Part shown: positions 2,941-64,000 of the stretch, piece by piece
How the letters are laid out: every line of letters begins with the position of its first letter
Numbering within the stretch: the stretch's first letter is position 1
Source: Lingula anatina
Taxonomy: Eukaryota; Animalia; Brachiopoda
Reading direction: 5' to 3'
Assembly: GCA_051362555.1 (NCBI GenBank)
Contig: CM120646.1
Coordinates: 5,766,001-5,830,000, forward strand
DNA: 64,000 nt
The notes under the pieces: generated by a model
Seen by the model: only the letters and a program-made list of their open reading frames with translations
Told to the model about the DNA's origin: nothing
The model's database searches: none
Translations under genes and position numbers: made by a program

Positions 2941-5900
2941 TTACTTTAAATCAAGATCATAACCTAATATGTCTGCATCAGTTTTATACAAAGTCTGCAG
3001 TTGTTTGATCATCCAAGGTTTAAGAGTCTGGAAATGTTTGGAGACCAAATCCTTGGTCTTTTTCGCAAAGTCAACATTGTCTGATTGCGGATAGGTGATT
3101 TCGTCAATCCCTAACATTTTCAAAAGATTGTTGGAATCCTCAACAATGGTTTCGTATCTTCCTATGACTTCATAATCGACGCTGCAGGGGTGGCACAAGG
3201 AGTGCTGAATACCCCAGTGGACATCAGGATGATTTTTGGTATCTATCACATACTGGATATATTCTGGGAATGTTACATTGTACTCCATCATCATTTGATG
3301 TGTTACGTCCCGTTTTTTGTGGATAGAACGTAAAACGTAGCCTGCAATTCTTGGGTCGTAAATATCATTTTTTGCTCTTTGGAGTTTTTCTCTGAAAAAT
3401 GAGACCAGTCTCTCGAATGGATGCCTCGTGATAAGAACTTTAGTGTAGTTTTTCAGTCTGGCGTCGCTGTCTGATCTGCTCGTGAATGATTTTAATCTCT
3501 TCAACGCTTTGTTTGACCATACGTGGTGAACATCATTCTTTTTTTGGGACCATATGTAAGACTTATTCAATTTGCACGTCATCAGCAGCATGATTCTTTT
3601 CCAGTTGGTACAGCCAACTTTAGGAATTTCACAGAAGATGAACTTGTGATGATCATCCACCCAAAACTGATGTAAAGCTCGCCCTGCTGGTAATGGGCTT
3701 GTTTTGATTTTGTGTAGCGCACATTTCCGGCGTATGAATTCTTTCCGTTTTACAATTGTCTCTGCCCACGATGTATTAACTGATGAAGCGTTCGTCCTGG
3801 GTGAAAGCTGGAAAAAATAGATGAATTAAGAAAGCATATCAGTGTGTTTAACAAAGACACAATTTATAGATTAAAGAAATAAGCCAACTGCTATACAAAG
3901 TTGGTTTTGTTCCCGTATATATACATTTTTTCTGACGATTCTACTCGGATGCGTGGTCAATTTGACTTTGTTGATAATTTGTTGATAATTTTTCTCGGTA
4001 AAATGAGTACAATTTAAATGTTTGTATCAATCACATTATATAGGATATATGTATTATTTATTCAAAGCGAGAGTGCAAATATTCACTGTGTTGGATGAGT
4101 ATTTTGACCTTATGCAAAACCGCCGCAATTGCGTTTAGATATTAAGCAATATAAGGGAAACCTCAGAGGATTCAACATTTTAGTAAACATGTCGAGTACT
4201 TCCTTAATGCGTCCATGTAAAACGAAATCCACCGAAGTTGGTTGATTGAGAGAGGAAAGCAAGCTTTATTAAGTTCCATACTTTCTCTAACGAACCATCT
4301 TTGGATCTTTCTCCATGAGAAGCTTTTCTGCGAACCCTCTCGATTTACAACTTTTCAGCGTTTCTGCTTCCACTGTTGTTTTTGGCAAGAACGATGTCCT
4401 CGTTTTTGGTAAAGGCTTGGTTTTGGAGATATTCCAAGTTGCTTCAGTATTTCTCCCACTAGTTTCGGCTTTCCCCGGAGACGCTTTGGCTTGCAAATTA
4501 GCTTCACTAATTTCAATAATGTTGGGGAAAGTTTGCTCTTCAGTTTTTTCATATTTGTCCTTGCGAATCTGTTAATAAATAGAGATGCCAAAATACTATC
4601 AATACTAAACTCATTTTGTTTTGTATTAGAAATTTGAACTTTCAGTTAGACTTTAAGGGACAAAATTTCCTAAAATTATTAACATGTGGTCATGTAAATA
4701 CTGTTGCTGTGTATATAAGCAAACCAAGTCAAACAATTTTTTTCTTTTTTTCAGTAAGGAAAAAAAATTTACATGAATAAGTATTTGGTATATGTGTCTG
4801 ACATTGTATAACCAGCTCCATTTCTTACTTCAGCGTCAGATTATGACGTTTCAAATAATGGGCACCAAAAAAAAAAAGTTGGTTGGTCACTTAATTTCCC
4901 TTTTTATATGAATTATTTTGACGTTGATTTATGATAAATGAATATTATGATAAATGAATATTCTGGCACCTTCACGCATGCGCAGTAGTATCTCTATTGC
5001 CATCGGATCATGAAGGTTCCACTAATATCTGTCGTGTGTATATGGATCTCATCTTCTTCGTCTTGTTGTTGCTCAAAATCGACAAACACATTTTTCAAAG
5101 CAACCGCGACCGCCATTTTCTCTCTTTAACTTATTACTACGCATGCGCAAGGTGCCAGAATCTCCTCCAAGCGCAGCCGAGAATTAATTACAGCTTTGGA
5201 AGTGACTAGCTCGCGCTGCTAGTTAATTACGCGCGCAGACCGTGATCACTAGATACCACCAATGGATTTTTGGATTTTTAGAATTTAGATTTTTCATGTG
5301 AACGGTGCCTAATATCCATGCAACAGGGTCCCAGCGTCCTTTCACAATTTGTTTCCTCCTTAATTGGAAAGTCTTGTTAATTTCATTCCAATACATTTTC
5401 ATCCTTGATTACATAAGGGTATACGGTGTTTTTTTTTTTTTTTTTTAACAATATGGTAGGCCTAGATGTATAAAATGGGTCACTGCACTCACGCGGGGTT
5501 GTAGAACCGCATTTTGCAACCAACTCACAACTAGAGAGCGAACATGATAATGTAGATATTACCATTACTGTCTCTCCCTTTGTAATACCCGTCTCCTTAG
5601 CATGCACCTTTCCAACTGCTATGTCGTTGCGTCTGATTTCTAAAAGAAAAAAACCAGATTTGATATAACGGTAGCATTTCCCAAACATTAATCATACAAG
5701 TCACTTATCCAGGAAAACTTGAACAAAATAACGAGAAAGAGAGAGAGGTCAAAAGATATACCGCTATTGGTTAAAACATAGCACTGTAATCAATCAAATA
5801 TTCTAAAAGAAATTGCATGTATATGAAATGAAATGATAGTGGTAGTGGATTCGTGTATTAAGTTATCATTTACTCACTTAGAGACGCATAAGCCATCCAT

Positions 5901-11372: not shown

Positions 11373-12307
11373 TTATTCTAACTTTAAATCAAGATCATAA
11401 CCTAAAATGTCTGCATCAGTTTTATACAAAGTCTGCAGTTCCTTGATCATCCAAGGTTTAAGAGTCTGGAAATGTTTGGAGACCAAATCCTTGGTCTTTT
11501 TCGCAAAGTCAACATTGTCTGATTGCGGATAGGTGATTTCGTCAATCCCTAACATTTTCAAAAGATTGTTGGAATCCTCAACAATGGTTTCGTATCTTCC
11601 TATGACTTCATAATCGACGCTGCAGGGGTGGCACAAGGAGTGCTGAATACCCCAGTGGACATCAGGATACATTTTGGTGTCTATCACATACTGGATATAT
11701 TCTGGGAATGTTACATTGTACTCCATCATCATTTTATGTGTTACGTCCCGTTTTTTGTGGATAGAACGTAAAACGTAGCCTGCAATTCTTGGGTCGTAAA
11801 TATCATTTTTTGCTCTTTGGAGTTTTTCTCGGAAGAATGAGACCAGTCTCTCGAATGGATGCCTCGTGATAAGAACTTTAGTGTAGTTTTTAAGTCTGGC
11901 GTCGCTGTCTGATCTGCGTGTAAATGATTTTAATCTTTTCAACATTTTGTTTGACCATACGTGATGAACATCATTCTTTTTTTGAGACCATATGTAAGAC
12001 TTGTTGAATTTGCACGTCATCAGCAGCATGATTCTTTTCCAGTTGGTACAGCCAACTTTAGGAATTTCACAGAAGATGAACTTGCGATGATCATCCACCC
12101 AAAACTGATGTAAAGCTCGCCCTGCTGGTAATGGGCTTGTTTTGATTTTGTGTAGCGCACATTTCCGGCGTATGAATTCTTTCCGTTTTACAATTGTCTC
12201 TGCCCACGATGTATTAACTGATGAAGCGTTCGTCCTGGGTGGAAGCTGGAAAAAATAGATGAATTAAGAAAGCATATCAGTGTGTTTAACAAAGACACAG
12301 TTTATAG

Positions 12308-19798: not shown

Positions 19799-22082
19799 TT
19801 ATTCTAACTTTAAATCAAGATCATAACCTAAAATGTCTGCATCAGTTTTATACAAAGTCTGCAGTTCCTTGATCATCCAAGGTTTAAGAGTGGTGAAATG
19901 TTTGGAGACCAAATCCTTGGTCTTTTTCGCAAAGTCAACATTGTCTGATTGCGGATAGGTGATTTCGTCAATCCCTAACATTTTCAAAAGATTGTTGGAA
20001 TCCTCAACAATGGTTTCGTATCTTCCTATGACGTCATAATCGACGCTGCAGGGGTGGCACAAGGAGTGCTGAATACCCCAGTGGACATCAGGATGCTTTT
20101 TGGTATCTATCACATACTGGATATATTCTGGGAATGTTACATTGTACTCCATCATCATTTTATGTGTTACGTCCCGTTTTTTGTGGACAGAACGTAAAAC
20201 GTAGCCTGCAATTCTTGGGTCGTACGTGTGATTATCAGTTTTTGCTCTTTGGAGTTTTTCTCTGAAAAATGAGACCAGTCTCTCGAATGGATGCCTCGTG
20301 ATAAAAACTTTAGTGTAGCTTTTCAGTCTGGCGTCACTGTCTGATCTGCTCGTAAATGATTTTAATCTTTTCAACGCTTTAATTGTCCATCCTAGGTGAA
20401 CATCATTCTTTCCTAGGGACCATATGTAAGACTTGTTGTATTTGCACGTCATCAGCAGCATGATTCTTTTCCAGTTGGTACAGCCGACTTTGGGAATTTC
20501 ACAGAAGATGAACTTGTGGTGATCATCCACCCAAAACTGATGTAAAGCTCGCCCTGCTGGTAATGGGCTTGTCACGATTTTGTGTAGGGCACATTTGCGG
20601 CGTATGAATTCTTTCCGTTTTACAATTGTCTCTGCCCACGATGTATTAACTGATGAAGCGTTCATCCTGGGTGGAAGCTGGAAAAAATAGATGAAGTAAG
20701 AAATCATATCTGTGTGTTTAACAAAGAGAAAATTTATAGATTAAAAAAATAACGCTAAAGGGGGGGGGGGGGGAGTACGGCTTTGCATCCGCGGACCCCC
20801 CCCCCCCCCCTTCAAATAATTCCCTTCTGGATCCGCCCCTTCACTTCGAATACTTCCTTAGATTCTTCCATGTAGAACGGAATCTACCGAAATTGGCGGA
20901 ATGAGAGAGTAAAGCAAGCTTTTAAGTTAAAACTAAGTTAGTTAAAACTAAGCTCCATACTTTCCCATGAACCATTTTCTGCTCTTTCTCCATGAGAACC
21001 TTCTTTGTGAATCCTTTCTGTTGACAACTTGTCAGCGTCTCTGCTTCCATTGATTCTTTTGTTTTTGGTGAGCTGGTTGTTTTGGGGACATTCCATGTTG
21101 CTTCAGATTTTCTTCTACTAGCTTTGGCTTTTCCCAGAGACGCTTTGGCTTGAAGATTAGCGTCACTAGTTTCGCTAATGTTGGGGAAGGTTTGCTCCAC
21201 AGTTTTCTTTACTTTGTCGTTGCGAATCTGTCGATAAATAGAGATGCAAAAAATACTATCAACAGTAAACTCTCATTTTGTTTTGTATTAGAAATTTGAA
21301 CTTTCAAGGGGATTTTAATTTCCTAAAATTATTGATGACATGTGGTCATGTAAATACGGTATAGAAACAGACTAAGTAAAATATTTTTTTTAATGTTGTT
21401 TATCATAAATATTCAATATCCAGGTCCTGTGGGAGAATGTTCTTTGTCACTCTCTTTCTCTTAATTGGAGAGTTTTAAGAGAAAAAGCCCACCAGATTAA
21501 ACTTTTTTGTATATTTCATTTCTTTAATTTCCTTCCTCGTTACCTCACTCTGATAACATAAGAGTATATGGTTTTTATTGTTTTTTTTACAATAAAATAC
21601 ATGCATATCTTTGGTCACTGCATACTAGCAGGGTTGTTGGGCCGCCTTTTGCAACAAACTCACCACCAATGTACGAACATGATAATGTATATCTTACCAA
21701 CATTTCCCCTTCTTTTATAGGACCTGTCTCCTTAACGTGCTCACCAACTGCTATGTTGTTGCGTCCGATTTCTGAGAAGATAAAACTATATTAGATATTG
21801 ATATCACATGGCGGCGACATTGCCCGAATATCAATCGAATCTCTCCTGGGACATTTTTGGTAAGTTGAACAAAAATAGGAGAAAGGGAAAGCAAGAGAGA
21901 GAGATGGTTAGTGCTGTAATCAATAAAATATCATAACAGAAATCGCATGTATATGAAATTGGAGGTAGTGTATTCGTGTATAAAGTTATCTTTTACTCAC
22001 TTAGAGGCGCATAAACCATCCATGCCATAATTCCGACAGTGAAAATAGCAATACCTCGAATGACTACCAGCCTGATCTTCAT
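19799..22082 (-). CDS. Carbohydrate sulfotransferase (CHST8-14 family), copy 3; exons 22001-22082, 21698-21771, 20961-21227, 19799-20677
   Basis: Phase-compatible exons (82+74+267+879 nt), canonical splice sites, intact IPKVGCTNWK and RHPFERLVS motifs. Confidence 0.9.
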
Positions 22083-25355: not shown

Positions 25356-28300
25356 TCAGACCGGACCCTGAGTACAGGTTACTGCAGAATTTTGGTGTCG
25401 CAAGATGTCTATATCTATTTGCCTTGGCTCTTCAAATTCATTAAACTTTTGTCCCACGTGATCAAAATTTGACCCCCTTGGAATGGTTATATTTTTCAAG
25501 TGACACGTGTATGTAGATTTTAGCATCGGACACGTGATGATGTCGTGGCACAAAGCCACGTTTTGTACCTTTGGTAAGACGACTTCGTCAATGAAATTCC
25601 CACTAGATTTAAATCTACGGGGTTGGCTATATTGTTTACCGAGTTCTAGCCAATTTTGTCCAAGAAGTCCAAGAAGTAATTTTGGTTTGGCTCCAATAAG
25701 GCATCCCCGTACACTTTGCCTGTAGTTGGGGTGATCTCGAATTATATGAAAAGGAAGTCCTGACGTTAGCCACTCCTCTACAAGTATTTTGTCGCGTTTG
25801 CTCAGACGAGAATCAAGGTCTCGGACGATAAACGCTTCAAGGTCAGTATCGTCTGCTACAAGAAAGCGCCACAGTGCGGGTGCAACACTGGAAGCAACAT
25901 GACCAGAAACCTCTATTACTTGAACGTTCGTCTGCTTTTTTATGAGATCTAAATATTTTTGTATTAATTTGTTGTCTCTGTTAAACTGTGGCTCTAGGTA
26001 TATTCGCATCATCCATGTAGGAAAGAAGATGCGGAGAAGTTGAGCGTTTCTCAAGGCGCCATGCCAATACCTGATTTTTTCCCCAAAAAGAGAGTAAGCG
26101 ATGACTTTTCTTGGTTTGTCAATCACTGGAATTTTATCTGGCTGTGCATTTATCCAAGTGAGAATAACATCTTGCCCTTCGGCTAACAAGTGGGGAAGGT
26201 GCGCTCTTCTATTTTCGTTGACACTGTAACGAATGCCATCTCTCTGAGTGTGCGCCAAGTACAAGTCCTTTAACACTTTCATCCGGCCGACGCCGTCGTA
26301 AACTAAAGTAATCCATCTATCGGCATACCACTCCGGGAACTGTCGCGGATAATAAAATCCGAACATTTCAACATGAGTCCTGTGTACAAAATCGTACGTT
26401 AAGATGGATTTATCACAAGATGAATATTTGCAAAAAAGGGAGGGACCGACCACCCCGACATTTGGTGGGTCGAATTCTGAAAGTTTTTGGATGTATTTTT
26501 CCGTCCACCTATCATTGATCATGAGAGTGTCGTCGTTGATGCGGTAATAGTAATCCATGTTGTCAAGGTACGCTGCCATCATGGCGTCATTCTGCGCCCA
26601 ACCAGGAGACTTAGAATGCATACACAAGACGGGTTTCAAATGTAAACTTTTCCCCTGGCACGCCAAGTTGCGAGTTGTTATTTGGAACGCCTCCCCAAAT
26701 AAAATGAGAGAGTCGTTACGGCTGAATAACGGGTCATTATAATCGTATGCAATGTAAAAATAGTATCTGTAGTTATCACTGGCTGTTAGGCAAAACCCCC
26801 TCATGAGATGAATGAAAAAGGACATATTTTCCAAGAGGTCAGTTACATTCACCCTACCGCTGAGATCAATATTCAAATTGTGTGTTGATATTGCACATCC
26901 TATTGCTATGGTAACAGAGTTGTTCATAGAGACAATATTTTGCGCATACTCAGACTGGTTCCTGGTTTTACTAAGTCTCTCCAGTGCTTTATCGAGATTC
27001 TGCATAATTTTCTCGTCTTCATAACCTAAAAATCTGCTGTTTGTGAATTCCTCGTCCACTATGACCGCTTCTCCTGATAATTTTCTGGAAATGTGAAAAG
27101 TGAAAAAAAAAAACGTTATGAAAAGAGTTTTTATACGTTTTTGTAGAAGTAATGTGAATTATTGTAAACAAAAGAATTGCCATGACATTTTATTGAGAAC
27201 AGTTCGTATTTTTTCGTACGATACAATGAAAAGCGGCCATCCCAATACTCAACAACTTACTTGTAAAATAAAACAAATGTGTTCTGTTTAAATCTTTTTA
27301 TACGGATAAGGATTTAAACTAAATTAAAGATAATGCAATTACATGTTCTGATAATTATCTACTACTACCCATATTTAATTTGTTACTTTTCTTAGGCAAA
27401 CATATATTAGTATAAGAAGTAGCATAGAGGGCCATCAATGTTAAAATGTAACAGTGAAAGCGATATCTTTTGTTAAATAAAAAATCAAGATATTTATATT
27501 ACAATACACGCAAAACTGGTAATATTCCCCACATTTTTGCCTTCAGAAATCTGGTGTGATTCTAACCAATTTAATGGATTGCACCTCGTTTTCGTTTGTG
27601 TAAAACAAACCGTGTATTTGCATAGGGAATCAATATTGTTATCGTAGCAGTTTTATTTACCGAAGCAATTCCATTGGTATAGTGTAGCAAAACTACAATG
27701 CATTATACGGCGGCGGCATTGACACAAGGAATGGGCTTACAGCATAATTGAAATAACAATCTAATGTAGTGTATGGGTGAAATTAATAATTGATGTGCGG
27801 TTTATGTGTAAAAGCTTTCAGTATTATATATACAGCTGTATAGTCTAGTTTCCTTGCGTTTGCGGGTCTCTATCAAATTCATAAGATTTTTATACTATCT
27901 TAGATTTTGAGTTCTAAATAATCAGACTAATTTCGAAAAGGGGCTTTTGCCAATACTATTTTTAATGTATCTTTTAAATATTGCAAATAAGCAAATAAAC
28001 ACCAATACCCGGCCATATTACCATGGTAACGTTGCCCTTAATTTTTTTTTTTTTTTTGATTCGCCGGACTTCATCTCCATCAACAGTGAGATCGTTTAAC
28101 GTGTCCCCACGCGACAAATTTGCTAAAAGTCAATTTTTTCCGAGAAAAGAGGGGCAATTTTCTCCTAATTTTCGAATTATTAGTCTGACAATAGTTATTT
28201 GATAACCTTTTGAAGTACAGTCAGGCGCGTCAGATTTTTGATACTATGTTTTAAACTGGTGTTTACAAGAGTCCAGTGAAATTTGGAGTAACTTAGCGTT

Positions 28301-30157: not shown

Positions 30158-32097
30158 CAGGCCTACCCAACTACCAGACTCAGCACCTAAGGATCCTGAA
30201 TTAACCGGTATATCGGACCACACTACCCGTTTTCAAGGTGTGTGTCATATCGCATTTCGGAGTATAACACCCCAGAACAAATTTTGTAGGAAGAACGCGG
30301 GCTCATCCACGCTCGGCTGTCACCTTGATTGGATAGTAAACGATTGTCGTAAAATCGCTATATGATTTAAAAACCTGGTGCATAAATTTGAAAACCACCT
30401 AGAACAACCTTAGACTGTAGGCCTACTCATACTTTAGAGTACTCTATTTTATTGTCTCTATGGGGGTATATGGGGACTTTACGACATTCGGTTTGAATGT
30501 TTTAACCACTTTTGATAGGGCTTTTTATGGAACGCCATCCACGCAAAAAATCAGACTTGCAATTTAATAGCCAAATGACATTCTAACAGCCTACAAGAAA
30601 TCTAACAGTGGTCAAAATAATCTAATAGCCAACTCATAAAATTTAACGGTGTTAAAAAATCTAATAGCCAACTAATAAAATTTAACAGCGTTAAAAAATC
30701 TAACAGCCAACTCATAATCTTACAGCCAACTTTTCAAAACAGCCAAGTCAGCATCTAACGCTAGAGGTCACTGCTGTCACGGGTCTATCCGTGTACGGGG
30801 CGTAAAGTGATGACGTTATCTGGAGCCTTAGAGATGTTGTTTAATATCCATATTACGTAGATGGAAGGTCGAATCAGAACTAATATAAAAGAGTATTTTG
30901 CCACCGGAATACGTGGAGTTCCTTCCCGAAAGATGCACAAGAAAATGGTGTTCAGTTTCAAACACCCGCACTTAGTAATGCAAGGTTACATCGCGTAGGG
31001 TAAAACATGGTGGTGCCTAGGACGCATTGTCCTATCATAGGACGCAACTGGACGTAATCTGCATATGCATGAATCAAAACTGTGACCTAATTTCACCCAA
31101 TGCACAATCTGGGTCACTAGTCTCACGTTTTACTACGATGGTAATACAAGTCCAACGTTCATCCCATTACAATCACCGATGGGATGACAGTGAACGTTCT
31201 ATTTAAAATGATTCTATTAGAAACATATATTAATAAATAATTTAATATATAGAACAAGATCAAACAAACGCTTTGTTGAAAAGATTTTTATCAAAAAAAA
31301 TATGGTAAAGGGACCAAAACAATGGGGAAATAATTCTATGTATTCATGTACTGAGGCTTAATTTGCTTTTACATTTTCACGCTAAATTCATTCCAGATTA
31401 TATCAAAACCAAATAAAAAATTCAATTAGGACAAACATATGTGTACTCAGGAGTTTATGTTACATGTTCATATACAGCAAAGAGAATATATTACAAGTAC
31501 TGGGAGTTACATTCATATTGAAATGACGTCATCACTTTACGCGCCGTCCACGGATAGACCCGTGACAGCAGTGACCTCTAGCGTTAGATGCTGACTTGGC
31601 TGTTTTGAAAAGTTGGCTGTAAGATTATGAGTTGGCTGTTAGATTTTTTAACGCTGTTAAATTTTATGAGTTGGCTATTAGATTTTTTAACACTGTTAAA
31701 TTTTATGAGTTGGCTGTTAGATTATTTTGACCACTGTTAGATTTCTTGTAGGCTGTTAGAATGTCATTTGGCTATTAAATTGCAAGTCTGATTTTTTGCG
31801 TGGATGACGTTCCATAGCTTTTTTTGCATCGTATTAGATTAATGTGGCAGTTTAAGGTTGTTCTAGGTGGTTTTCAAATTTATGCACCCAATTTTAAAAT
31901 CATATAGCGATTTTACGACAATCGTTTACTATCCAATCAAGGTGACAGCCGAGCGTGGGCTCATCCTGTCGGTGTTCTGACTGATAGGCCTACTCAGAAA
32001 TGCGATCTGACACACACCTTGAAAACGGGTAGTGTGGTCCGATATACCGGTTAATTCAGGGTCCTTATGTGCCGAGTCTAGTAGTTGGGTAGGCCTG
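30158..32097. mobile_element. Outer foldback element with ~250-bp arms (30158-30412 / 31848-32097)
   Basis: CAGGCCTACCCAACTAC... is mirrored by ...GTAGTTGGGTAGGCCTG; flanked by the direct repeat CCATT (30153-30157 / 32098-32102). Confidence 0.8.
30526..31816. mobile_element. Inner foldback element with ~310-bp near-perfect TIRs containing CTAAYAGCCAAC subrepeats, nested in the outer element
   Basis: TATGGAACG...CGTTCCATA termini; arms at 30526-30835 and 31524-31816; flanked by GCTTTT on both sides (alternatively a TA TSD). Confidence 0.85.
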
Positions 32098-36565: not shown

Positions 36566-38257
36566 GCAAACTTTCGCACGCGCATAATCTAAAGAATAAA
36601 CACTTTTATACTTCCAGACCCACCCCCTCCCACGACAGGGGTCATTATCCTCACGTACCAGAGAAGCGGATCAACATTCGCGGGAGAGCTGTTCAACAGG
36701 CATCCCAAATCTTTCTACCTCTTTGAACCTCTCTGGGGGATATACAGGGCCATGGAGAAGGAGAAAATACTCAATTTTCCCGACAAATCAATGCGGTAAG
36801 CATTATTCAATCCTCACTAAGATTCGTTCGAATCAGATACACCATAAGAACGCCAAAAGGGGTTTAGTGAGTCCTTTCACAATGCCACATCGTTTAATCT
36901 AGCAATTTACTTTGTCCTTTAAGTCTGTCCGATAGGGGTTGCTGGAGTAATATTCGCCTTCAACTATCAAAGAACATGAGTAGGCCTATTCTACTTTATT
37001 ATCCCATTTAAATTGCCCTGCCCGTCTTGTTTACGAACAAAGTCGTTTCATCTGAAATATTTGTAATGTCTATCCTTACGTTTTTAGGGATAATTCTGAC
37101 ACAATGAAAACCAGCGTAAATTAAAATAGGACTACAGTACTGTTGTAAAATCAATAATAGGCCTACTAGTATTTTTATGTGGTTACATTTAGCTTTGTGG
37201 CATATGTACCTGCTTTGGATCTAATAAATTATATACATGTATGTAAATGTATACATTATTGTTAAACAGGCATACACCGAGCTGGGGAATGGAGAAAGAA
37301 CTCCTACTTCAAATAACAGACAACTTACTAAACTGTCGGTTAAAGGAAGTTCCCATGGAGACGTTGGCCCCGGGGCGAGATGAGAGCCACAGCTTTTTTT
37401 TCAACATGGACCACAGGAGCATGAACTTAAAAAGATACAGAGAATGTTTGGTCAGTAAAAAGAGACCCGAGGAGCACCAGTGCGTGCCAATTCTCAGCAA
37501 ATATTGTAACCACGCCAAACTTGTAGCTCTTAAAATATTGCGACTTCGCATGGAATGGCTGCCACCTTTGCTTGACAAAAACCCGGGACTGAAGGTGATA
37601 CATTTGGTCCGAGATCCTCGGGGTTCTCTATTCTCTCGCATGTCCCGCCGGCTTAATATTTGCGACGTGAATTGCGAAGCAAACGTGCGTTGTTTTCACA
37701 TGGCCAGAGATTTGCGGTGGAGGCGAAAAATGGAAGCAATCTATCCCGGTCGTCTTATTGAACTCAAGTACGAGTCCTATGCAGAAAAACCGCTCATGGA
37801 ATTAAATAGAATTTATAATTTTCTTAATATTCCTGTTCCCCCCGATGTAGAAGACTGGGTTCAGGAAAACACGGACGCTTTTTTCGAAAGGAAAGGTAAC
37901 TATGCAACAACGAAAGAAAACTCTTCGGCAGCAGCGCATGCGTGGGAGAGTCGCATACATGTTGCCATGGCGATGGATATTGACAACGTCTGCGCAGACG
38001 TTCTTGAAGACTTTGGATACAGAAAAGCATCGGAGATATTAAAAGACCGCATTACCAAAGAAATAAAGAAAGAGGGCATGAAAGTTGCTGCATATTCACA
38101 AAAATCTGAAGATAAGGGAAACCCTCAAACTGCAAAGCCACCAAAAAAGCATGATGTTCCATCTATGGATAGACATGAAAGTGCGCAAAGAAAAGTTCCA
38201 AAGGCGCACGATAACAAAAGTCAATTTCAGAATATTCATATTCGATTGAAACCTTAG
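36288..38257 (+). CDS. Gal/GlcNAc-6-O-sulfotransferase-like (CHST1-7 family, ~441 aa); exons 36288-36447, 36618-36795, 37270-38257
   Basis: Exon 1 has a type II TM. Exon 2 encodes IILTYQRSGSTFAGELFNRHP..FYLFEPLW (5'-PSB). Exon 3 has KVIHLVRDPRG (3'-PB) and LKYE. Phases 1 and 2 are compatible. Confidence 0.9.
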
Positions 38258-46160: not shown

Positions 46161-46461
46161 GACGATTTTGGAATATTTTGTGTTCTTTCCAGCTCCGCGT
46201 CTAGGTTATAAAGTAGAGTTGATCCAGTTTTTATACCAGACGAGACAAGGATATCGAGGCAAGAATGTTTATATGATGTTTTCATTTAAATGAAAAAAGT
46301 TAAAACATTTCTGTAGGTCTGTCATACAAGGAAACGAAAATAACTTTGAAGTATCGATCGATGAACTGGTATGGGACAAACGAACATGCATGTATAAAAA
46401 TGGTGAAAAAACAGAACTAACTTGTTGACAATCAAGTTTCAAGGTTTATTTCAGCACTATC

Positions 46462-47434
46462 ATGGCAAGTTCAACTCTCCGACAACAAAAGACATCGCAA
46501 CGTTACAGATATGACTTCTGTGTGGTGTATTACAACACGGATCAAGTAAGGGGGAACCCAGATTACGAGGACGGAAGAAAGAGCTTAAAGTTTGTTAAAA
46601 CATTAGTGAAACTCTTAGAAAAGTTTACATGGCCTTATGGTAATAATGCAAGAAAGCTCAGAGGCTACTATGCAGATCGTGATTTGCTCCCTGGGCGAAT
46701 GATCATAAATGAACATTTTCAAGTCCTGGGGGAGTCCCGCTACACGATCGTTGTTTTGAGTCCAGCCTTCATTCGAGATTGTTGGTCAGAATACATCGCC
46801 CAGTCTGCATTCCGGGAGTTGATCGGTACGTCACGCTTTGTGCCCCTTGCCGTCCATGGCGTTCAACCCACCGATAGCGGCATCCCGAAACAGCTGAATG
46901 TCGCATACATAGTATATTTCCGCCAAGGAGAAAGCCCTGAAGAAGATGATCGCGCCTGGTCCAAGGTGAAGAAAACTCTGCTGTGTGAAAATCCACGACA
47001 GAGAGACTTAGATGAACAAGTAGGAGCTAGTGGGCCGATAGTGCCAGACAGTGGAGGCTCTGGTAAGATTTGCATGAAATTGTTTACCTCCACTGGCAGG
47101 CATATTTCACTGTTCAAATGATGTTATTTTGGTCCTGCCTGAGTAGCTGTAAGTAATAATATATGGTAACCAAAGGTATGATTGAATTAATTTGAGATTT
47201 GCCTGGAATTTTATCCTTTTTTCCCTGGAAAAAAAAATTTATAGTAGACTTACAAAGAGGGCTACCAAATATAAGGAAAAATGCATCAATGGATGTGCAT
47301 AGCTTTAACCTCTAAGGAAAATATCAACAGAGGAAATAATAATGCATGAGACTTTATAATAATAGGCATGCTTAGTATGCAGTCCATGATGCTGTCATTC
47401 ATAGGGTATGGAAATTATCTGATCCGATGTGTTT

Positions 47435-52856: not shown

Positions 52857-53156
52857 GATGACTCTGGAATATTTTGTGTTCTTTCCAGCTCCGTGTAGGT
52901 TATAAAGTAGAGTTGATCCAGTTTTTTATACCAGACGAGACAAGGATATCGAGGCAAGAATGTTTATATGATGTTTTCATTTAAATGAAAAAAGTTAAAA
53001 CATTTCTGTAGGTCTGTCAAACAAGGAAACGAAAATAACTTTGAAGTATCGATCGATGAACTGGTATGGGACAATCGAACATGCATGTATAAAAATGGCG
53101 AAAAAACAGAACTAACTTGTTGACAATTAAGTTTCAAGGTTTATTTCAGCACTATC

Positions 53157-54160
53157 ATGGCAAGTTCAACTCTCCGACAACAACAGACACCGCAACGTTA
53201 CAGATATGACTTCTGTGTGGTGTATTACAACACGGATCAAGTAAGGGGGAACCCAGATTACGAGGACGGAAGTAAGAGCTTAAAGTTTGTTAAAACATTA
53301 GTGAAACTCTTAGAAAAGATCACATGGCCTTATGGTAATAATGCAAGAAAGCTCAGAGGCTACTATGCAGATCGTGATTTGCTCCCTGGGCGGATGATCA
53401 TAAATGAACATTTTCAAGTCCTGGGGGAGTCCCGCTACACGATCGTTGTTTTGAGTCCAGCCTTCATTCGAGATTGTTGGTCAGAATACGTCGCCCAGTC
53501 TGCATTCCGGGAGTTGATCGGTACGTCACGCTTTGTGCCCCTTGCCGTCCATGGCGTCCAATCCACCGATAGCGGCATCCCGAAACAGCTGAATGTCGCC
53601 TCCATAGTATTTTTCCGCCAAGGAGAAAGCCCTGAAGAAGATGAGAGCGCCTGGACCAAGGTGAAGAATACTGTGCTGTGTGAAAATCCACAACAAAGAG
53701 ACTTAGATGAACAAGTAGGAGCTAGTGGGCCAATAGTGCCAGACAGTGGAGACTCTGGTAAGATTTGCATGAAATTGTTTACCTCCACTGGCAGGCATAT
53801 TTCACTGTTCAAATGATGTTATATTGGTCCTGCCTGAGTAACTGTAAGTAATAATATATGATAACCAAAGGTCTGATTGAATTAATTTGAGATTTGCCTG
53901 GAATTTTATCCTTTTTTCCCTGGAAAAAAAATTATAGTAGACTTACAAAGAGGGCTACCAAATATAAGGAAATTAAACATTAAAGATAAGTAACTATGCA
54001 CTAAAAATGCATCAATGGATGTGCATAGCTTTAACCTCTAAGGAAAATATCAACAGAGGGAATAATAATGCATGAGAATTAATAATAATAGGCATGCTTA
54101 GTATGCAGTCCAAGATGCTGTCATTCATAGGGTATGGAAATTATCTGATCCGATGTGTTT

Positions 54161-57137: not shown

Positions 57138-58820
57138 AGGGATAAAATCTTTCCTGGGGTAAACAGCAATTTTCCATACTTACCAATGGTTAATGAATCC
57201 ATTTCTACATTCAAAGTTAGTCCCCGTTTTTTTTTCAATTTTTTCTAAATTTTATTATTTATTTATTTATTTGTAATAATCCCTTAAGAGATTATTACAA
57301 AGTAAAGCCATCTGTGGAGGTCACGTGGTTGGATGGCAAGCACAGATTTCAGATTTATTGCTCTAAATGTCTTTTTTTGTGGTTAAATCAGTAGGACACA
57401 TACTGTCGAAAAGCGGTGTACTTCGGCACGTCATGATTGTTGTTTTGCTACGTCCGCGTAACAAAATAGCCCGAGAACGGCGATTCGTTGAAAATGTGTA
57501 CGTTACACGTAAATCTATATTGCAAAAAATCTACAGTGGCTTGAACTTTTATATTTTAAAAAGTGAATAAGCATTTGTTCTTCTGTCGAAAAATAGCATA
57601 GTTTCACCAATAAACCGTAAAGAATTCTTTCCACCGCGTCCTGAATACAGAGGACGGAATTTTTTACAGAACCAAAAACGCAAATGTCTAGGGAGGGACT
57701 ATAATGCGAGAAATTTGTTTACAAATATAAAATTCGCTTAAATTGCAAAAAAAGATTGCTAAAGTATAAAGGTTTTCAATTTTTAAAGGAAAATCCCGCA
57801 CACTCTTTGGTTTGTCAGTCTCGACCGAAAATCTGGGAAGTTGTCAAAATCAGCGGAAATTTACTCCCGCGCAAAACCATCGAATAAAATACCCATTTTT
57901 GCCGTCTTTCAAGCAAATAAACACCTTTATTCACTCTAAAAAGTTTCAAACTAACCTCAAATTTCACATAAGGTGCTATGATCCACACTTTTCTCCTAAG
58001 CAGCAGACTACTGACCTTGAACTGGTTTGATTCGTAAATATCATGTGACAGAAGTCATGTGACATTCATCACTTTACAGTTGTACGTCGACAGGAAACTC
58101 GAACTGCATTGTGGGAGGGGGAAAGAGCGTGAACTCATGGCGCGAAGGCTCTTGAACACAAAATAATGACTACCTGCTGTGTTTCAAGTTGCAGAAATGA
58201 TAGAAGGTATCGAGAAAGGTAATTTCCCGCTAATTTTACAATTATGGACCAGAGTGTGTGATCGTCGAGGTTTTTCCCCATTATTCGGATACTCGCCGTT
58301 TTTGTTTTGCTCTATTTTTTCCCACAATGCAATTCTCACGCATGCGCGCAGCGATTTTGTAAGTATCTGTAAAGTGGTGAATGCTGATTGGGCCTTCAAA
58401 TTATGCATTTCTTAAGTCCAGTGTGATCACAAATAAGGTTTTCAGTTTATTAGGGCAATGATTGCATGAAATAATAAAAATGCAACTTAAAATTAATGCC
58501 GAAGAACCAATTTTGCCTCTCGTTTTGCGGGAGTTTGTCTGACCTATTTTCATTGGAAATCCCGCAATTTTATCACGAGGGTGGACAGGTGGAGTGAATT
58601 GTGCGGCCAGTTTCGAATTGCACCAAAACTTGCGGAAATTTGTGACCCACACATGTAAACTATGTATGAAGATTATAATGAGGTAGGTATAGATTTTCAA
58701 CAGAATTCAGAAGTTATACTTTATACGAAAAAAGTGTATGCCTTCCCCCCAACTTCAAGATCATGTTCGGTATAAAGTATTCACTGTGTCTACTTACTGA
58801 ATTGGTGAGTGATCGCTGTC
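57138..58820. mobile_element. Possible Kolobok-like non-autonomous DNA element (left end only), apparently interrupted by the LTR element
   Basis: TTAA|AGGGATA begins where homology with duplication unit A ends. No matching right end was found in the window, so the extent is uncertain. Confidence 0.35.
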
Positions 58821-58823
58821 TAT

Positions 58824-59051
58824 TGTTATGCTCTTTGATAGAATTGTAGATGGATCGTCAATCTAGACACGTCCGGTACGGAGTGCAGAATATTAGACAA
58901 TGATCTGTGACAGTTGTGATGTCACAATAGTGACGATCTCCTGCAGGGGGCGTGCTGTCCCCACCTGGCCTAGCTCACTCACCTGAGGTGGCCTATCTTG
59001 GCACATGAAGAGCAGACCAGGTGGAGGAAGGAAAAAACTCCGATCACAACA
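58824..59051 (-). repeat. 3' LTR of the Gypsy element (start at 59051 firm; far boundary at 58824 tentative)
   Basis: On the minus strand the PPT AAAAGTGGGGGGAA is immediately followed by TGTTGTG. The candidate end ...CATAACA gives an imperfect terminal inverted repeat. Confidence 0.6.
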
Positions 59052-59065
59052 TTCCCCCCACTTTT
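59052..59065 (-). other. Polypurine tract (PPT)
   Basis: Plus strand TTCCCCCCACTTTT reads AAAAGTGGGGGGAA on the minus strand and abuts the TG of the LTR. Confidence 0.8.
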
Positions 59066-59160
59066 ATTAAAAAGAGCCGAAAAAGGTAAAGTTTTTTCCC
59101 AGTAATAGCAATACATGTTTAAACATGTAAAAATATTTTTCAATAACAATGGCTTCCAGC

Positions 59161-59291
59161 CTCGATCAGACTGACGTTAATGCTAACGACATCACCGAGG
59201 TGATAGTCTGACGAGAAAAAATATAGGATTAAACTGTGACAACTGTTGATTCAGCAGTTAGTCACATCACTGATACAGTGATAGTCTATCC
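59161..59291 (-). other. Two tandem predicted three-way-junction RNA structures in the retroelement 3'UTR
   Basis: 59161-59215 and 59226-59291 share the architecture: outer AGACU stem, AUCAC..GUGAU hairpin, second hairpin. Stem sequences differ while pairing is kept. Confidence 0.6.
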
Positions 59292-59828
59292 ACAAAAATA
59301 AATACTGGAAAGCCAAAAAATGAAATCAAAAATTTGGGGACATTCCTAGGATTTGGCGGAAGATCAGAATACTAAATAAATAATAAAATGGAAATAAATA
59401 AACACTTGTGCTGGTGCACTGTACCTAGTACAGAGTAATAAACTGTGCTGCGGTGCTGTATTGCGTCCTGCAATATAGTGCTTCTGAAATACACATATTT
59501 GTGTACATAACTTGACAAGTGATAGATATATATAAGTGCTACAGGTGCCATTGTGCTCTTGTGCATCTTTGTATCTGTAAATGATATATAAATAAATAAT
59601 GAATGATAATCAAATAAAGAAATGAATAAGGTGAAAATAGGCCCACTGATGGTAACTTTCATAGCTCCGATGATCTCCCGGATCAGGAAGAGGAGAGGGG
59701 CTTCAGTGAAATTTGAATTTAGTAAGTACTAAGAAGAAATAGTTTTCATAATTTTCTAGAAATTTTTAAATTGTTCAAAAAAGAAGTAATTTTGTCATAT
59801 TTTCAATTTTTGTTTTCCAAATTTCTGG

Positions 59829-62120
59829 TTACTCCCTTTTATACAAGGAAGTACCATTTTGTGTAGTGATTTTTAAAATATGAGAGACATCCACCCCTCT
59901 GTGCCCCGCCAATATCTCTGCCGTTTCATAGAGAATAAAGGGTGTTGAATGGCCCCCCTTTTTGCGAGCAAAATAGGGGGCATCTGACTCCAAAAGAAGT
60001 TTGGAGTCAGGCACCGCCCTAAGTGCTGCTAGTTGATTTTTGTTAAAGGTGGCAGCAACCCGGGTGAAACCGAAAAAGGTATTTGGTTGCTGCCTTCCCC
60101 AAATTTCGAGAAGGGCCTTAGTGCCTGTAAAGCAGTGAAAATGGATCCTCTGGGACTGCGGAACGCCACACAGTTTCAGATGAAACAAAAGAGATCTTAT
60201 GGCGAACTCACAGTCTCCAGAGTCTCCCCTCACTCCCCTACAGTGCACAACCAGGACATGCCTGGCCTCTAGAAAAGGCAGAAGTCTGTGGAGCAACTCA
60301 ACCTGATCCTGCCATTTAGACATGGCTTCAGTGTGGTCGAAACCTACCTTGCCAAAAGCTGTTACTAGCGGCATCTTAACCAACTCTGAGAAAGCCTTAA
60401 TTGCCTGGTCCAGATTGCCCTGAGAAAGCTTGCCGGCTAGCCTCGGGTGAAAACCAATAGCTACATACTCGATCCCAGACAGAGTGGAAAGATACCCCTT
60501 AGTAGGATATGTCTTGGGATCGCAGTAAATAGCTACAGTTCCCACCAACTCTACCTCTTTCCCAGAGCAAACAGGAAGCAAACCCTTAAGACCCTCTAAC
60601 TTGCCAGAGTATGGAAGACCAAAGGCAGCCAGGGTTCTATCTAGATGATAGTGACTATCGAAAGCTTGCCTCCCTGACTTACTTTGTTCCCCCGCCTCCA
60701 GACAAGTTTCTGGCCTGGTGAACCCTTGAATCCACAACGACCTCTGCTGCTCCGTTATAGAAGCAGACAGCTGTGTCAGGACTCTCCAATCCACCAGGAC
60801 CCCGACAGAGTTAGCTGGGTATAAGGTGAAACGCACTGGAACCGGTTTATTGAGAAATTTACAGAAATTTTCCATGGCAGTAATTTGGATTGAAGAAAAA
60901 GTGCCATGGGCTAAATTTAATTTATCTGGAAGAGCCGAAATGAACTGGTATAAAGTGTCCAGTTCTTTTTTAAAACCAAAAATGAAGAAAGTAAGCATCT
61001 CCAGTGCTTTAACCATTACACCCAAGATGTTGGGCTCAGGATTGGCGCGCTCATCAAAGATAGACGGGACATGCAGCCCCAGCGAATGCTGCCTGAGCAT
61101 CTGCTCATTAAGTTTCACCCCACACCCAGGGACCACACATTGCATCTCGGAGTGATCTTTCCTGGCCCTTTTGGGGTCAGGTCCAACCACTCCGGATGGT
61201 GTTTGGCTAGACCTTTTCGGTTCCCTGGTTGTAGGATGAGACAGCTCCGCTGACTCAACATGCCCATCCACCCCAGACTTTGCAGCAACCAACCCCTTGC
61301 CAGGTTTCTTACCACGCCTCCACCAAGGAGCTCTCTTCTTCCCCTTACGCTTACTGCCCCCCATGGGCTCAGATGGTACAGGCCCAGGAACAGGAACTTG
61401 GATCCCTGTTGGAGCAGCAGCTTCAGGGAGGTGTGAACCTGAAGAAGAGGAGATAGAAAAGTTGAAAGGGATGGCGGTATTTTGCAGCAGTGATGCGCCT
61501 GGCTTAGAAGCTTCCGGAGCAGCTGGAGGTTTCACGCTGGTTTCGGCATCCTTTGGGACTCCAAGAAGTCTGTCCTCCTCAATGGAGTCCAGACTGGAGT
61601 TGGGGTCGATGTTACTTGACCCCACACCAAGTTCAGCCTCAACCAATTGCGATTCCACCTCCATAGGCTGGACCGAGCCACTCCCATCGACCACCTGGGA
61701 AATGAGTGTTATGTTTGGGTCCTTCCCAAGCCTGAAATCACGAGTTTTTTGTCCATCGTACTCCACGGAGGGAGCAGATTTCAAAACTCGTGCAGGAGGG
61801 GTGAAATTTTTGGGAAGGCGCCAAACATTCTTCTCAATCCAGTTTTTAGACGCAAGCCCACTAGATTGTAGTTGGTAGGCCACTTGCTGCAACCATGCCA
61901 GAGACATGGCATACCTACCGGGAGCATGAAGCTCCTTTTTATAAATGGTAGCCATCCCAGCCACCAGTGTTTTGAAGTAGCTGCTGTGATCTTCCCCAGG
62001 CAGAGCCTGGGCCAAATCCTGGACAAACTGGGTTCCAGGGACATCTATAGGTGAACAGTGCTGTAATCTGAGTGAAGTCTCCTTCACAACAGGTGCTACT
62101 TCCGTGATAGTATTGGCCAT
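59829..62120 (-). CDS. tatD: Retroelement accessory ORF (763 aa): low-complexity/basic N-terminus, C2H2-like finger, C-terminal TatD-family nuclease domain
   Basis: TatD TIM-barrel motifs in order: FDSHYHLD, AIGFHP, FGKVGFDH (for GExGLD), VVHCR, HFHCFTG, LLESDAPY. Intronless and located between pol and the PPT. Confidence 0.88.
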   Translation of the reverse strand: MANTITEVAPVVKETSLRLQHCSPIDVPGTQFVQDLAQALPGEDHSSYFKTLVAGMATIYKKELHAPGRYAMSLAWLQQVAYQLQSSGLASKNWIEKNVWRLPKNFTPPARVLKSAPSVEYDGQKTRDFRLGKDPNITLISQVVDGSGSVQPMEVESQLVEAELGVGSSNIDPNSSLDSIEEDRLLGVPKDAETSVKPPAAPEASKPGASLLQNTAIPFNFSISSSSGSHLPEAAAPTGIQVPVPGPVPSEPMGGSKRKGKKRAPWWRRGKKPGKGLVAAKSGVDGHVESAELSHPTTREPKRSSQTPSGVVGPDPKRARKDHSEMQCVVPGCGVKLNEQMLRQHSLGLHVPSIFDERANPEPNILGVMVKALEMLTFFIFGFKKELDTLYQFISALPDKLNLAHGTFSSIQITAMENFCKFLNKPVPVRFTLYPANSVGVLVDWRVLTQLSASITEQQRSLWIQGFTRPETCLEAGEQSKSGRQAFDSHYHLDRTLAAFGLPYSGKLEGLKGLLPVCSGKEVELVGTVAIYCDPKTYPTKGYLSTLSGIEYVAIGFHPRLAGKLSQGNLDQAIKAFSELVKMPLVTAFGKVGFDHTEAMSKWQDQVELLHRLLPFLEARHVLVVHCRGVRGDSGDCEFAIRSLLFHLKLCGVPQSQRIHFHCFTGTKALLEIWGRQQPNTFFGFTRVAATFNKNQLAALRAVPDSKLLLESDAPYFARKKGGHSTPFILYETAEILAGHRGVDVSHILKITTQNGTSLYKRE

Positions 62121-62147
62121 ATCTGTAATAACAATGAAAAATAATTA

Positions 62148-64000
62148 TTAGATTTGACATTTTACACACTTGTATTTATCAATGTTTATCGCTTCGGTAG
62201 AAGTGACATTGACGCAGGATCCATGATACCATTCATGACAGTAATCACATTGAATCATGAATCTGCCCTGATAAGGCTCCCTGCAAATACAGTATGGTGT
62301 CAAATCTTCTTCCTCACTGTTACTCGAGTGCTGAAATTGTTCATCAGAAGCTAAATATTCTGTAATCCATGAGGGTACATTTCTGTCCCTACAGGGCATG
62401 AGCCTGTCATGGTTAATTACAAAGATTGCATTTTTTAGCTTCACTCGATACAGATAGCCAGATAATTTCTTTACAATGATGGCGGGTCTTTTCCATGGTG
62501 AACACAATTTTCGTGATTTGCCTTTAGTTGTTGCTGTATCCAAAACATAAACCAAATCCTTTTCAGCATAAGGTCTAAGCAGGATTTTAAGGTCATAGTC
62601 ACGTTTCATGCGTTTTGAAGTTGTTTTTAAATTGGCTCTTGCTGTAATATGAGCTAATTTCATTTTTTGTACTAACTTTGAAATGTATTCACCATAGTCA
62701 GTTTCTTTTGATTTCAGATTTGGGAACATAATTTGGGCTGGAGTACTGACCTCCCTCCCAAGCATGAGCATATTAGGGGTATACCCCGTACTTCTGTTTA
62801 CAGAAGCACGCAACGCGCCTGCAATTTGCTGGACATATTTATCCCATTCACCCTGATTTTTACCCAAAAAACACCGTACGGCATCCATCAGGGTACGATT
62901 GAACCTTTCAACCTGTCCATTTGCAGACGGTCGGTACGGAGTAGTGCGTGATTTGTGTATATGTAAAGCCCTACACAAATCCCCGAACAATTGACTTTCA
63001 AAATTCCGTCCCTGATCAGAAAAAAGTTGATAGGGATAACCGAACCTAGAAAAGAAACAGTCAATTGCTGCTTTCGCGGTCACTTCGGCCGTTTGAGAAG
63101 GCAACGGCACGCACTCTACCCACTTTGTGAATTGATCAACCATGACCAAACAATGCTCATTACCTTTTGCTGTTTTAGGTAGCGGTCCCAAGAAATCAAT
63201 ATGAACCCGTTCCATCGGAGCACCTGCAACATATTCAGTCAGGGGGACTCTTCCGTAACACCCTTTTTTCTTATTTTTATTACAGATGTCACAACTCAGG
63301 ACATAATTGGCTATTTCTTTGCTCATATGGGGCCAGTAAAATTTTTCTTTGATTTTTGTTTTTGTTCTAGCCACTCCTTGGTGACCAGCTGAAGGGATAT
63401 CATGATGTAATTTGAAAACAGAATTTTTTAATGATTCTGGGATGACTAATTTTAGATCTTTGCTTTCCTCTTCAGTTTTGAAAATGACTCCATGATGTAA
63501 TTTGAATAATTCTTTATTCAGCCAGTAAGTTTTGGAGATTGGGCTTGATCGGAAGAGTGCACCCTGATCTGGGGTATTCCCTTTGTACAACCACTCTCGT
63601 AAAATGTTAAGCTCAGGGTCTTTTGCTTGTTCAGTTTTTAATTTTTCCATAGAAAAACCCCAACACTGAGGAATATCCGGGTTTGGATTTGACCTCGCCT
63701 CCGGACCACACGCATTTATTTCTACATGAGATTCCTCAGGTTGCAGAGCGACATCGGTAGAGAGGGCTACAATTTTTTCTAGGAGACAGTAGAAAAGATG
63801 TTCCGGACCCGTTTCTCGTCCCAGATTGACTGTATTTAATGAGGATGTCAGATCGCGTTGACTTTTTGTAGATTTACCAGTAAATTTGGATGACAATTTT
63901 TTCTTTTCTGTTAAATTGACCGCTTCGTCGACGTCACCGAAAAAACTCCCCCAGTTTTCATGGGCTCTAACGCAATAACTACATCCTCCGCAAGGTAAAT
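62148..64000 (-). CDS. pol: Gypsy Pol C-terminus: integrase (HHCC, DDE core, GPY/F-like) with terminal PHD finger; frame open to the window edge
   Basis: HDIPSAGH...CDIC zinc-binding motif; RVHIDFLGP, SDQGRNFES, NGQVERFNRTL; SPWKRP; C4HC3 PHD at 62148-62297. Upstream of the listed TTG the frame continues LPCGGCSYCVRAHENW to ~63998. Confidence 0.95.
   Translation of the reverse strand, partial: LPCGGCSYCVRAHENWGSFFGDVDEAVNLTEKKKLSSKFTGKSTKSQRDLTSSLNTVNLGRETGPEHLFYCLLEKIVALSTDVALQPEESHVEINACGPEARSNPNPDIPQCWGFSMEKLKTEQAKDPELNILREWLYKGNTPDQGALFRSSPISKTYWLNKELFKLHHGVIFKTEEESKDLKLVIPESLKNSVFKLHHDIPSAGHQGVARTKTKIKEKFYWPHMSKEIANYVLSCDICNKNKKKGCYGRVPLTEYVAGAPMERVHIDFLGPLPKTAKGNEHCLVMVDQFTKWVECVPLPSQTAEVTAKAAIDCFFSRFGYPYQLFSDQGRNFESQLFGDLCRALHIHKSRTTPYRPSANGQVERFNRTLMDAVRCFLGKNQGEWDKYVQQIAGALRASVNRSTGYTPNMLMLGREVSTPAQIMFPNLKSKETDYGEYISKLVQKMKLAHITARANLKTTSKRMKRDYDLKILLRPYAEKDLVYVLDTATTKGKSRKLCSPWKRPAIIVKKLSGYLYRVKLKNAIFVINHDRLMPCRDRNVPSWITEYLASDEQFQHSSNSEEEDLTPYCICREPYQGRFMIQCDYCHEWYHGSCVNVTSTEAINIDKYKCVKCQI

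Follow-up and report, generated by a model that had tools for sequence, protein, structure and literature searches.

Why would a retrotransposon carry a gene for a TatD-family nuclease, and what would such an enzyme do for it? The question is raised by one end of a 64,000-nt stretch of the Lingula anatina genome (assembly GCA_051362555.1, contig CM120646.1, forward-strand positions 5,766,001 to 5,830,000; hereafter the window). A minus-strand region there is the 3' end of a Ty3/Gypsy long terminal repeat (LTR) retrotransposon, and its third gene encodes a TatD-family nuclease (Table 1). The pol frame is open to the end of the window, ends at a stop codon at 62148-62150 and matched the Pfam families Integrase_H2C2, rve and PHD. 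The third open reading frame (ORF3) begins 27 nt after this stop codon on the same strand, and its own stop codon lies 761 nt ahead of the polypurine tract. ORF3 thus sits between pol and the polypurine tract and LTR, inside the element, as the original prediction, made from the sequence alone, had claimed.

The same prediction let its region end at 58824. The start of the LTR at 59051 is firm, while 58824 is only one of six candidates for its far end, which also include 58787 and 58764. An end near 58764 was favoured because a donor-like splice site lies inside the LTR at 58797. The LTRs of four relatives measured about 200-385 nt. No second match to the LTR was found within the 64-kb window, and the relatives were collapsed assemblies with a single LTR between the polypurine tract and the primer site. 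ORF3 had also been said to lack a signal peptide and a transmembrane segment, and the hydropathy scan and the structural model agreed. No signal peptide was found (peak hydropathy 0.36 over the first 40 residues), and the single borderline hydrophobic stretch (1.93, residues 365-383) is a helix of the modelled domain. With neither signal peptide nor membrane anchor, ORF3 was rejected as an env gene.

The ORF3 family comprised 153 representatives at E ≤1e-30 among 50%-identity clusters. The nearest relative was XP_013398409.1, also from Lingula anatina, with 40% identity overall. Named members among the 30 proteins looked up were from Lingula, Mercenaria, Argopecten, Pecten, Ostrea, Lytechinus, and Diadema, and thus from a brachiopod, bivalves, and sea urchins. 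Two clusters, with 29 and 52 near-identical members, were spread over many long contigs, which is what a repeat would show. We scored 75 loci (74 from a metagenome scan and one family locus from GTDB; L numbers denote loci) and placed 40 in the family and 35 in the cellular type, using a profile made from 21 proteins of the family, part of which probably stem from the same contigs; L041 was borderline and fell outside the element clade in the tree. A pol gene was directly upstream in 16 of the 40 family loci and in none of the 35 cellular-type loci, L021 being counted on an incomplete stretch of integrase. Where 2 kb or more of upstream sequence was present, pol just preceded the ORF in 12 of 13 family loci, compared with 0 of 7 of the cellular type. 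A one-off capture, which the original prediction had weighed, does not agree with these counts. Three loci (L027, L028, L032) were single-frame cellular-type TATDN2-like genes with no pol nearby, and L028 had two N-terminal zinc knuckles (Pfam). A search for longer fused proteins gave two weak matches, both placed or treated as cellular TATDN2. No relative turned up in IMG/VR when it was scanned with the alignments of ORF3 and of integrase. Only one of the 80 kept GTDB loci belonged to the family; the other 79 were ordinary bacterial TatD (E 6e-18 or weaker), and a bacterial home for the family was rejected.

One relative, L003, is a complete element on one collapsed contig, with gag (1125 codons), pol (1513), ORF3 (815), polypurine tract, LTR, and primer site. 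Its pol carries protease, reverse transcriptase (RT), RNase H, integrase, and a PHD finger, and its best PDB match was Ty3 Gag-Pol (E 1.2e-103). The pol of the window was 55% identical to that of L003 across its full length. The order protease-RT-RNase H-integrase was seen in L003 and L021; the window itself reaches the integrase end only, and RT lies beyond it. The ORF3 layout recurred in elements whose integrases share only 60-66% identity with that of the window. We regard TatD as family-level cargo of a Gypsy lineage with little doubt. Another locus, L002, encodes gag, protease, a PHD tail, and an intact 751-aa ORF3 without RT, RNase H, or integrase core, and its TatD is very close to Argopecten XP_069103070.1. 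Judging from its gene content, L002 is possibly a non-autonomous form that keeps the nuclease.

Selection on the TatD domains was estimated from Nei-Gojobori counts on profile-aligned codons. For every one of the 13 copy pairs whose dS was 0.13-0.43, the ratio of nonsynonymous to synonymous rates (dN/dS) was 0.20-0.69, although these pairs are not mutually independent and most of the copies have decayed. Five more closely related pairs, separated by few changes, gave 0.33-1.99. Between families, synonymous sites were saturated, whereas TatD was kept: the proportion of nonsynonymous differences (pN) in TatD was 0.23 and that of synonymous differences (pS) 0.81 for L003/L004, and 0.30 and 0.79 for L018/L019. 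The integrases of these pairs had pN of 0.07 and 0.11, respectively. The TatD domains of these elements are under purifying selection, and the neutral drift that the original prediction had allowed for was not seen in the 13 informative pairs. TatD and integrase distances were correlated among 15 elements (rho 0.50, Mantel p 0.0002), and the correlation was 0.41 (p 0.006) without three near copies. The distances thus co-vary, although deep nearest neighbours often disagree. These results supported TatD as stable, selected, and vertically inherited cargo of the Gypsy lineage. They also bear on whether the element took up a host TatD gene or retrocopy on a single occasion, or merely lies next to one, with no role for it. 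Public annotations do list the relatives as host genes. However, the position of ORF3 ahead of the polypurine tract, the recurring layout, the purifying selection with co-divergence, and the clusters of near-identical proteins make such a passive passenger highly improbable.

The TatD domain matched the whole Pfam profile TatD_DNase (PF01026; E 1.8e-26, 93.5 bits against a cut-off of 27). An AlphaFold model of residues 321-763 (mean predicted local distance difference test score (pLDDT) 80) aligned with E. coli YcfH over 247 residues (Z 25.5, root-mean-square deviation 3.2; VIA-align), and TatD structures were the best Foldseek matches of the model. All six TatD motifs named in the original prediction are present in the stated order. 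The group II HxH motif is formed by H490 and H492, kept in 127 and 124 of 129 representatives. The GxxGxD motif is also there, but the pattern conceals a lysine at residue 591, the metal-bridging position. This column holds glutamate in 140 of the 148 representatives that cover it, aspartate in four, and lysine in one. The equivalent residues are E593 in TATDN2, E112 in TATDN1, and E91 in E. coli. E593A was reported to abolish the R-loop activity of TATDN2 (PMC10711561), and E112A to reduce the activity of TATDN1 strongly (PMC10085689). Since the bridging glutamate is so widely kept in relatives, the copy in the window probably encodes a catalytically dead protein. In ureases the metals are bridged by a carbamylated lysine; such a bridge at residue 591 was judged unlikely, lysine being so rare at this position. 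Apart from this residue the copy does not look decayed. Its TatD departs at two of 33 conserved columns (among 135 relatives, 50 have no departure, 34 have one, and 25 have two), and its integrase has nine private departures (range 2-16 among seven integrases).

A lysine at residue 591 while both ORFs of the window stay open, together with this typical number of departures, might suggest that the TatD fold is kept chiefly as a nucleic-acid-binding scaffold and that catalysis is dispensable. The rarity of the lysine argues otherwise, as do the seven metal and catalytic positions, which are all canonical in 122 of the 136 proteins covering them (a set that contains one cellular protein). We consider the scaffold improbable. 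An active enzyme is likely to be encoded somewhere in the TatD-carrying family, as judged from these residues.

Upstream of the barrel, ORF3 has basic, nuclear-localisation-like motifs, and K[KR]x[KR] occurred in 42 of 57 full-length relatives, compared with 16.9 in shuffles. Next comes a family-specific domain made of a Cys2His2-type zinc finger and a helical part. It was found in 88 of 91 relatives with room for it and in none of 120 cellular TATDN2-like proteins, and the Cys2His2 ligand pattern was kept in 93 of 94 relatives. The domain had no Pfam match, and its single-sequence model was poor (pLDDT 47.6). Fold searches covering it returned barrel matches instead, and ESM Atlas gave leads to C2H2 fingers, all below 0.9.

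From 90 prepared TatD domains, 70 were placed in a quick tree and 49 in a careful mixture-model tree; the others were dropped for redundancy and run time. The element TatDs formed one clade on a long stem in both (31 rows with support 99 in the quick tree; 16 rows with 100/100 in the careful tree) and grouped with eukaryotic TATDN2-like proteins against bacteria (98/93). Nine of the ten best BLAST matches among 53 non-element domains were named TATDN2-like, and the other was an unnamed eukaryote-type locus. In the careful tree the element clade stood beside the TATDN2-like eukaryote rows, as sister to all of them, and in the quick tree it fell inside them, with no named TATDN1 or TATDN3 rows included. 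Nesting within lophotrochozoan TATDN2 appeared in neither tree, yet this grouping was not rejected (approximately unbiased test, p 0.146). The trees are compatible with a TATDN2-like and possibly single origin.

How ORF3 might be expressed is suggested by a predicted splice acceptor just before its ATG. Sixteen elements were examined; in the 11 whose ORF3 starts past the pol stop codon, an acceptor lay at most 6 nt from the ATG in eight, compared with 82 of 2070 background ATGs. A conserved acceptor points to an env-style spliced mRNA. Among 31 loci scanned, a polypurine tract was found in eight and a clear primer site in four, and in each of these four one donor-like site lay 20-57 nt ahead of the primer site. 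Integrase tail, PHD finger, and TatD lie in a single 900-codon frame in L013, which may be a pol-TatD fusion or a lost stop codon. The PHD finger was present in seven of seven aligned integrases, and its closest PDB matches were PHF8, PHF2, KDM7A, CFP1, and BPTF. The fingers of these proteins are readers of H3K4me3, histone H3 trimethylated at lysine 4.

In four loci (L013, L012, L003, L002) the Gag N-terminus has a helix-hairpin-helix, which precedes a capsid of PNMA-like type and a zinc knuckle. Pfam HHH_3 was above cut-off in L013 (E 1e-8) and below it in the other three (1.6e-5, 0.0016, and 0.0013), and Pfam gave no HHH_3 match in the L021 Gag. A literature search on such a helix-hairpin-helix Gag found nothing relevant. 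Primer-binding sites vary within the family; those of L003, L004, and L013 resemble tRNA-Ser ends. The L002 site matches the tRNA-Leu site given in PMC8905726 at 11 of 12 bases.

What, then, could ORF3 do? We tentatively propose that it is a nuclear TATDN2-like RNase that would strip R-loops of their RNA where copies of the element are transcribed or where it integrates; this reading is plausible but stays short of an even chance. A donor in the LTR would be spliced to the acceptor before the ORF3 ATG and give ORF3 its own mRNA. The basic linker would bring the protein into the nucleus, where linker and zinc finger would bind nucleic acid and the TatD barrel would cut the RNA of R-loops, with ORF3 working apart from Gag-Pol. 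RNA in hybrids as the main substrate is a similarly tentative assignment. TATDN2 is reported to degrade R-loop RNA with little DNA nuclease activity and to need its disordered N-terminus for binding (PMC10711561). It is also described as expressed in germ cells and protecting primordial germ cells (PMC12709183). More speculatively, the PHD finger might direct the integrase to transcribed chromatin bearing H3K4me3, a setting in which R-loops are frequent, and R-loop clearance might aid transcription or integration and spare the germ cell. The full picture, which is unlikely to hold in every part, would be an old Gypsy lineage of brachiopods, bivalves, and sea urchins that carries its own R-loop-resolving enzyme, spliced and nuclear, and whose helix-hairpin-helix Gag and H3K4me3-type PHD integrase favour insertion into active, R-loop-rich germ-cell chromatin, the hybrids being cleared by the element itself. 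If R-loops are indeed the target, this would to our knowledge be the first retroelement-encoded R-loop nuclease, and retrotransposition would be linked to R-loop metabolism in germ cells.

Several observations weigh against this proposal. TATDN2 is reported to be weak on plain RNA-DNA duplexes (PMC10711561), which argues against a simple second RNase H. The element TatDs are only 25-29% identical to TATDN2 on a stem branch of 0.99, and thus the substrate preference may have changed. Named TATDN1 and TATDN3 are absent from the tree, and the topology test (p 0.146) does not settle the donor lineage. Since PHD finger and TatD share a frame in L013, a separate ORF3 mRNA is not universal, and the survey of donor-like sites had no shuffle control. 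Moreover, the loci were picked through TatD, so that relatives without ORF3 are invisible to the counts, and L073 has upstream room but no pol. Finally, TatD evolves about three times faster than integrase, which fits a conflict role as well.

In such a conflict ORF3 would be a weapon, and its targets could be silencing RNAs or the scaffolds formed by nascent transcripts, nucleic acid that stimulates immunity, or the RNA or complementary DNA (cDNA) of competing elements. The retention of ORF3 in the deleted element L002 would agree with this, separate expression would suit action in trans, and the bacterial Qat defence system employs TatD according to database annotation. However, every informative pair had a dN/dS below 1 and gave no sign of positive selection at the resolution reached, no target was identified, and the L002 deletion is possibly an assembly artefact. 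We find this role rather unlikely, and it would overlap with R-loop clearance if the silencing trigger were an R-loop.

Alternatively, ORF3 might help in the processing of DNA. As a 3'-5' exonuclease or an endonuclease acting at abasic sites, it would trim the ends of the cDNA or mend gaps in the integration intermediate. YcfH-type enzymes are its best structural matches, and the shared frame of L013 would link the nuclease to the integrase. Most Gypsy elements, however, manage these steps without an ORF3 nuclease, and ORF3 is seemingly made apart from Gag-Pol, so that it is not obvious how it would enter the particle. Abasic-site endonuclease activity is reported for TATDN1, TATDN3, and each of the three E. 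coli paralogs, and 3' exonuclease activity for TATDN1 and TATDN3 (PMC10085689). Because the nearest subfamily, TATDN2, is instead described as an R-loop RNase with little DNA activity, cDNA trimming is less favoured than the original prediction supposed, and a DNA helper seems unlikely to us.

Whatever its substrate, the element gene is already present in public annotations. Element TatD ORFs are annotated as ordinary host genes in all seven genera named above, and as bacterial TatD hydrolase in bins of Thiodiazotropha (P0009, P0056, P0068) and Sedimenticola (L078). In the bacterial bins these ORFs most likely mark host DNA; the case shown is the L078 contig alone, where a Gypsy integrase lies beside the TatD ORF. 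The suggestion that these elements account for apparent TatD expansions is in keeping with such listings as host and even bacterial genes, and if the full picture drawn above is true, hundreds of "host" and "symbiont" TatD annotations would be these elements. The transposon-like genes listed for the Hox cluster of the giant squid include a "TATDN2" (figure legend of PMC6962438), which might be one of these ORFs. The lineage is apparently unpublished. No TatD-carrying retrotransposon was found in the literature, though Repbase, Dfam, and GyDB, which were outside the search, may catalogue such elements without comment. "TatD" is absent from the main texts of PMC6238403, PMC8556966, PMC8905726, PMC2836005, and PMC6338049, whose supplements could list such elements, and from the text of PMC5408684.

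Elsewhere in the window, two TIR-domain exons just downstream of the element lie in a 6.7-kb tandem duplication of 95-98% identity (Pfam TIR_2, E 8.6e-7 for the first). Three tandem carbohydrate-sulfotransferase exons lie in 8.4-kb repeats, with one further sulfotransferase. There are also long inverted repeats (arms up to 294 nt, 98%), a foldback element or one like a miniature inverted-repeat transposable element. A 600-codon open frame had no Pfam match at E 0.01; by eye it may be glycosyltransferase-like.

Table 1. Coordinates of features in the window and, where a locus number is given, in related loci
Feature	Position	Strand	Basis or remark
3' part of pol: linker that follows RNase H, then integrase with H2C2 zinc-binding domain and rve core, and a PHD finger at the C-terminus	62148..64000	-	Pfam
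PHD finger at integrase C-terminus	62157..62291	-	Pfam, E 2.6e-9; PDB, E 3.6e-15 to PHF8
Predicted splice acceptor (pyrimidine tract and CAG)	62123..62140	-	ends 2 nt ahead of the ORF3 ATG (62120)
ORF3, 763 aa: helical N-terminus, then a low-complexity linker bearing basic motifs, a zinc finger with a helical domain, and TatD	59829..62120	-	
Basic, nuclear-localisation-like motifs, residues 257-263, 268-272, 316-321	61158..61352	-	
Family-specific domain, Cys2His2-type zinc finger and ~110-aa helical domain, residues 325-475	60696..61148	-	
TatD domain, group II (HxH), residues 487-761	59838..60662	-	Pfam, fold comparison
Residue 591, metal-bridging position, lysine here	60348..60350	-	relatives' alignment
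Polypurine tract	59052..59068	-	same tract before TG in L002, L003, L004, L008, L012, L013, L019, L021, L078
3' LTR	58764..59051	-	start 59051 (TG) firm; far end uncertain
TIR-domain exons	46429-47121, 53124-53816		
Sulfotransferase exons	2941-3825, 11373-12263, 19799-20740, 37247-38257		
Long inverted repeats	30158-32097		
600-codon open frame	25356-27158		
Gag with N-terminal helix-hairpin-helix	L013:3979-4566; L012:4120-4938; L003:611-3985; L002:933-3029		
gag, protease, PHD tail, and ORF3 of L002	L002:933-6315		
Integrase tail, PHD finger, and TatD in one frame	L013:1-2700		

In errantiviruses and retroviruses, env lies between pol and the 3' LTR, and its subgenomic mRNA is spliced from a donor close to the 5' end. 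ORF3 has the same position and a predicted spliced mRNA, but differs in its enzyme fold and in lacking a signal peptide and a membrane anchor. Ginger1 DNA transposons also have a Gypsy-like integrase, possibly with a C-terminal PHD finger, and terminal inverted repeats (PMC2836005), while the relatives of the window element have gag, protease, RT, RNase H, polypurine tract, LTR, and primer site; a Ginger1 identity was rejected on the RT and LTR features.

Similar to ORF3, TATDN2 of human and medaka is described as a protein of about 760 aa with a C-terminal group II HxH TatD domain and a long, disordered, basic N-terminus (PMC10711561, PMC12709183). The motif xC(D/E)P is common to the element TatDs and part of the TATDN2 set and occurred in none of 17 bacterial domains. 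Unlike TATDN2, the ORF3 proteins are multi-copy and mobile, form a separate long-branched clade, and have a zinc-finger and helical domain without counterpart in the TATDN2-like set; the window copy also lacks a residue matching E593.

The closest parallel is with the Juno and Vesta LTR retrotransposons of bdelloid rotifers, which are reported to be Gypsy-type and to have, where env would lie, a gene of a 3'-5' exonuclease family whose role is putative; such ORF3s are in general expressed through splicing (PMC5408684). This precedent makes a TatD ORF3 less surprising. The rotifer fold is DEDDy (PMC5408684), to which the TIM-barrel TatD is unrelated. Moreover, the rotifer gains are described as recent, repeated, and near neutral (PMC5408684), whereas here the TatDs form one clade, are under purifying selection, have relatives in two animal superphyla, and carry a dedicated zinc-finger domain. 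The lineage adds a seemingly unpublished class of enzyme to LTR-retrotransposon cargo, one that is old, selected, and inherited with pol.

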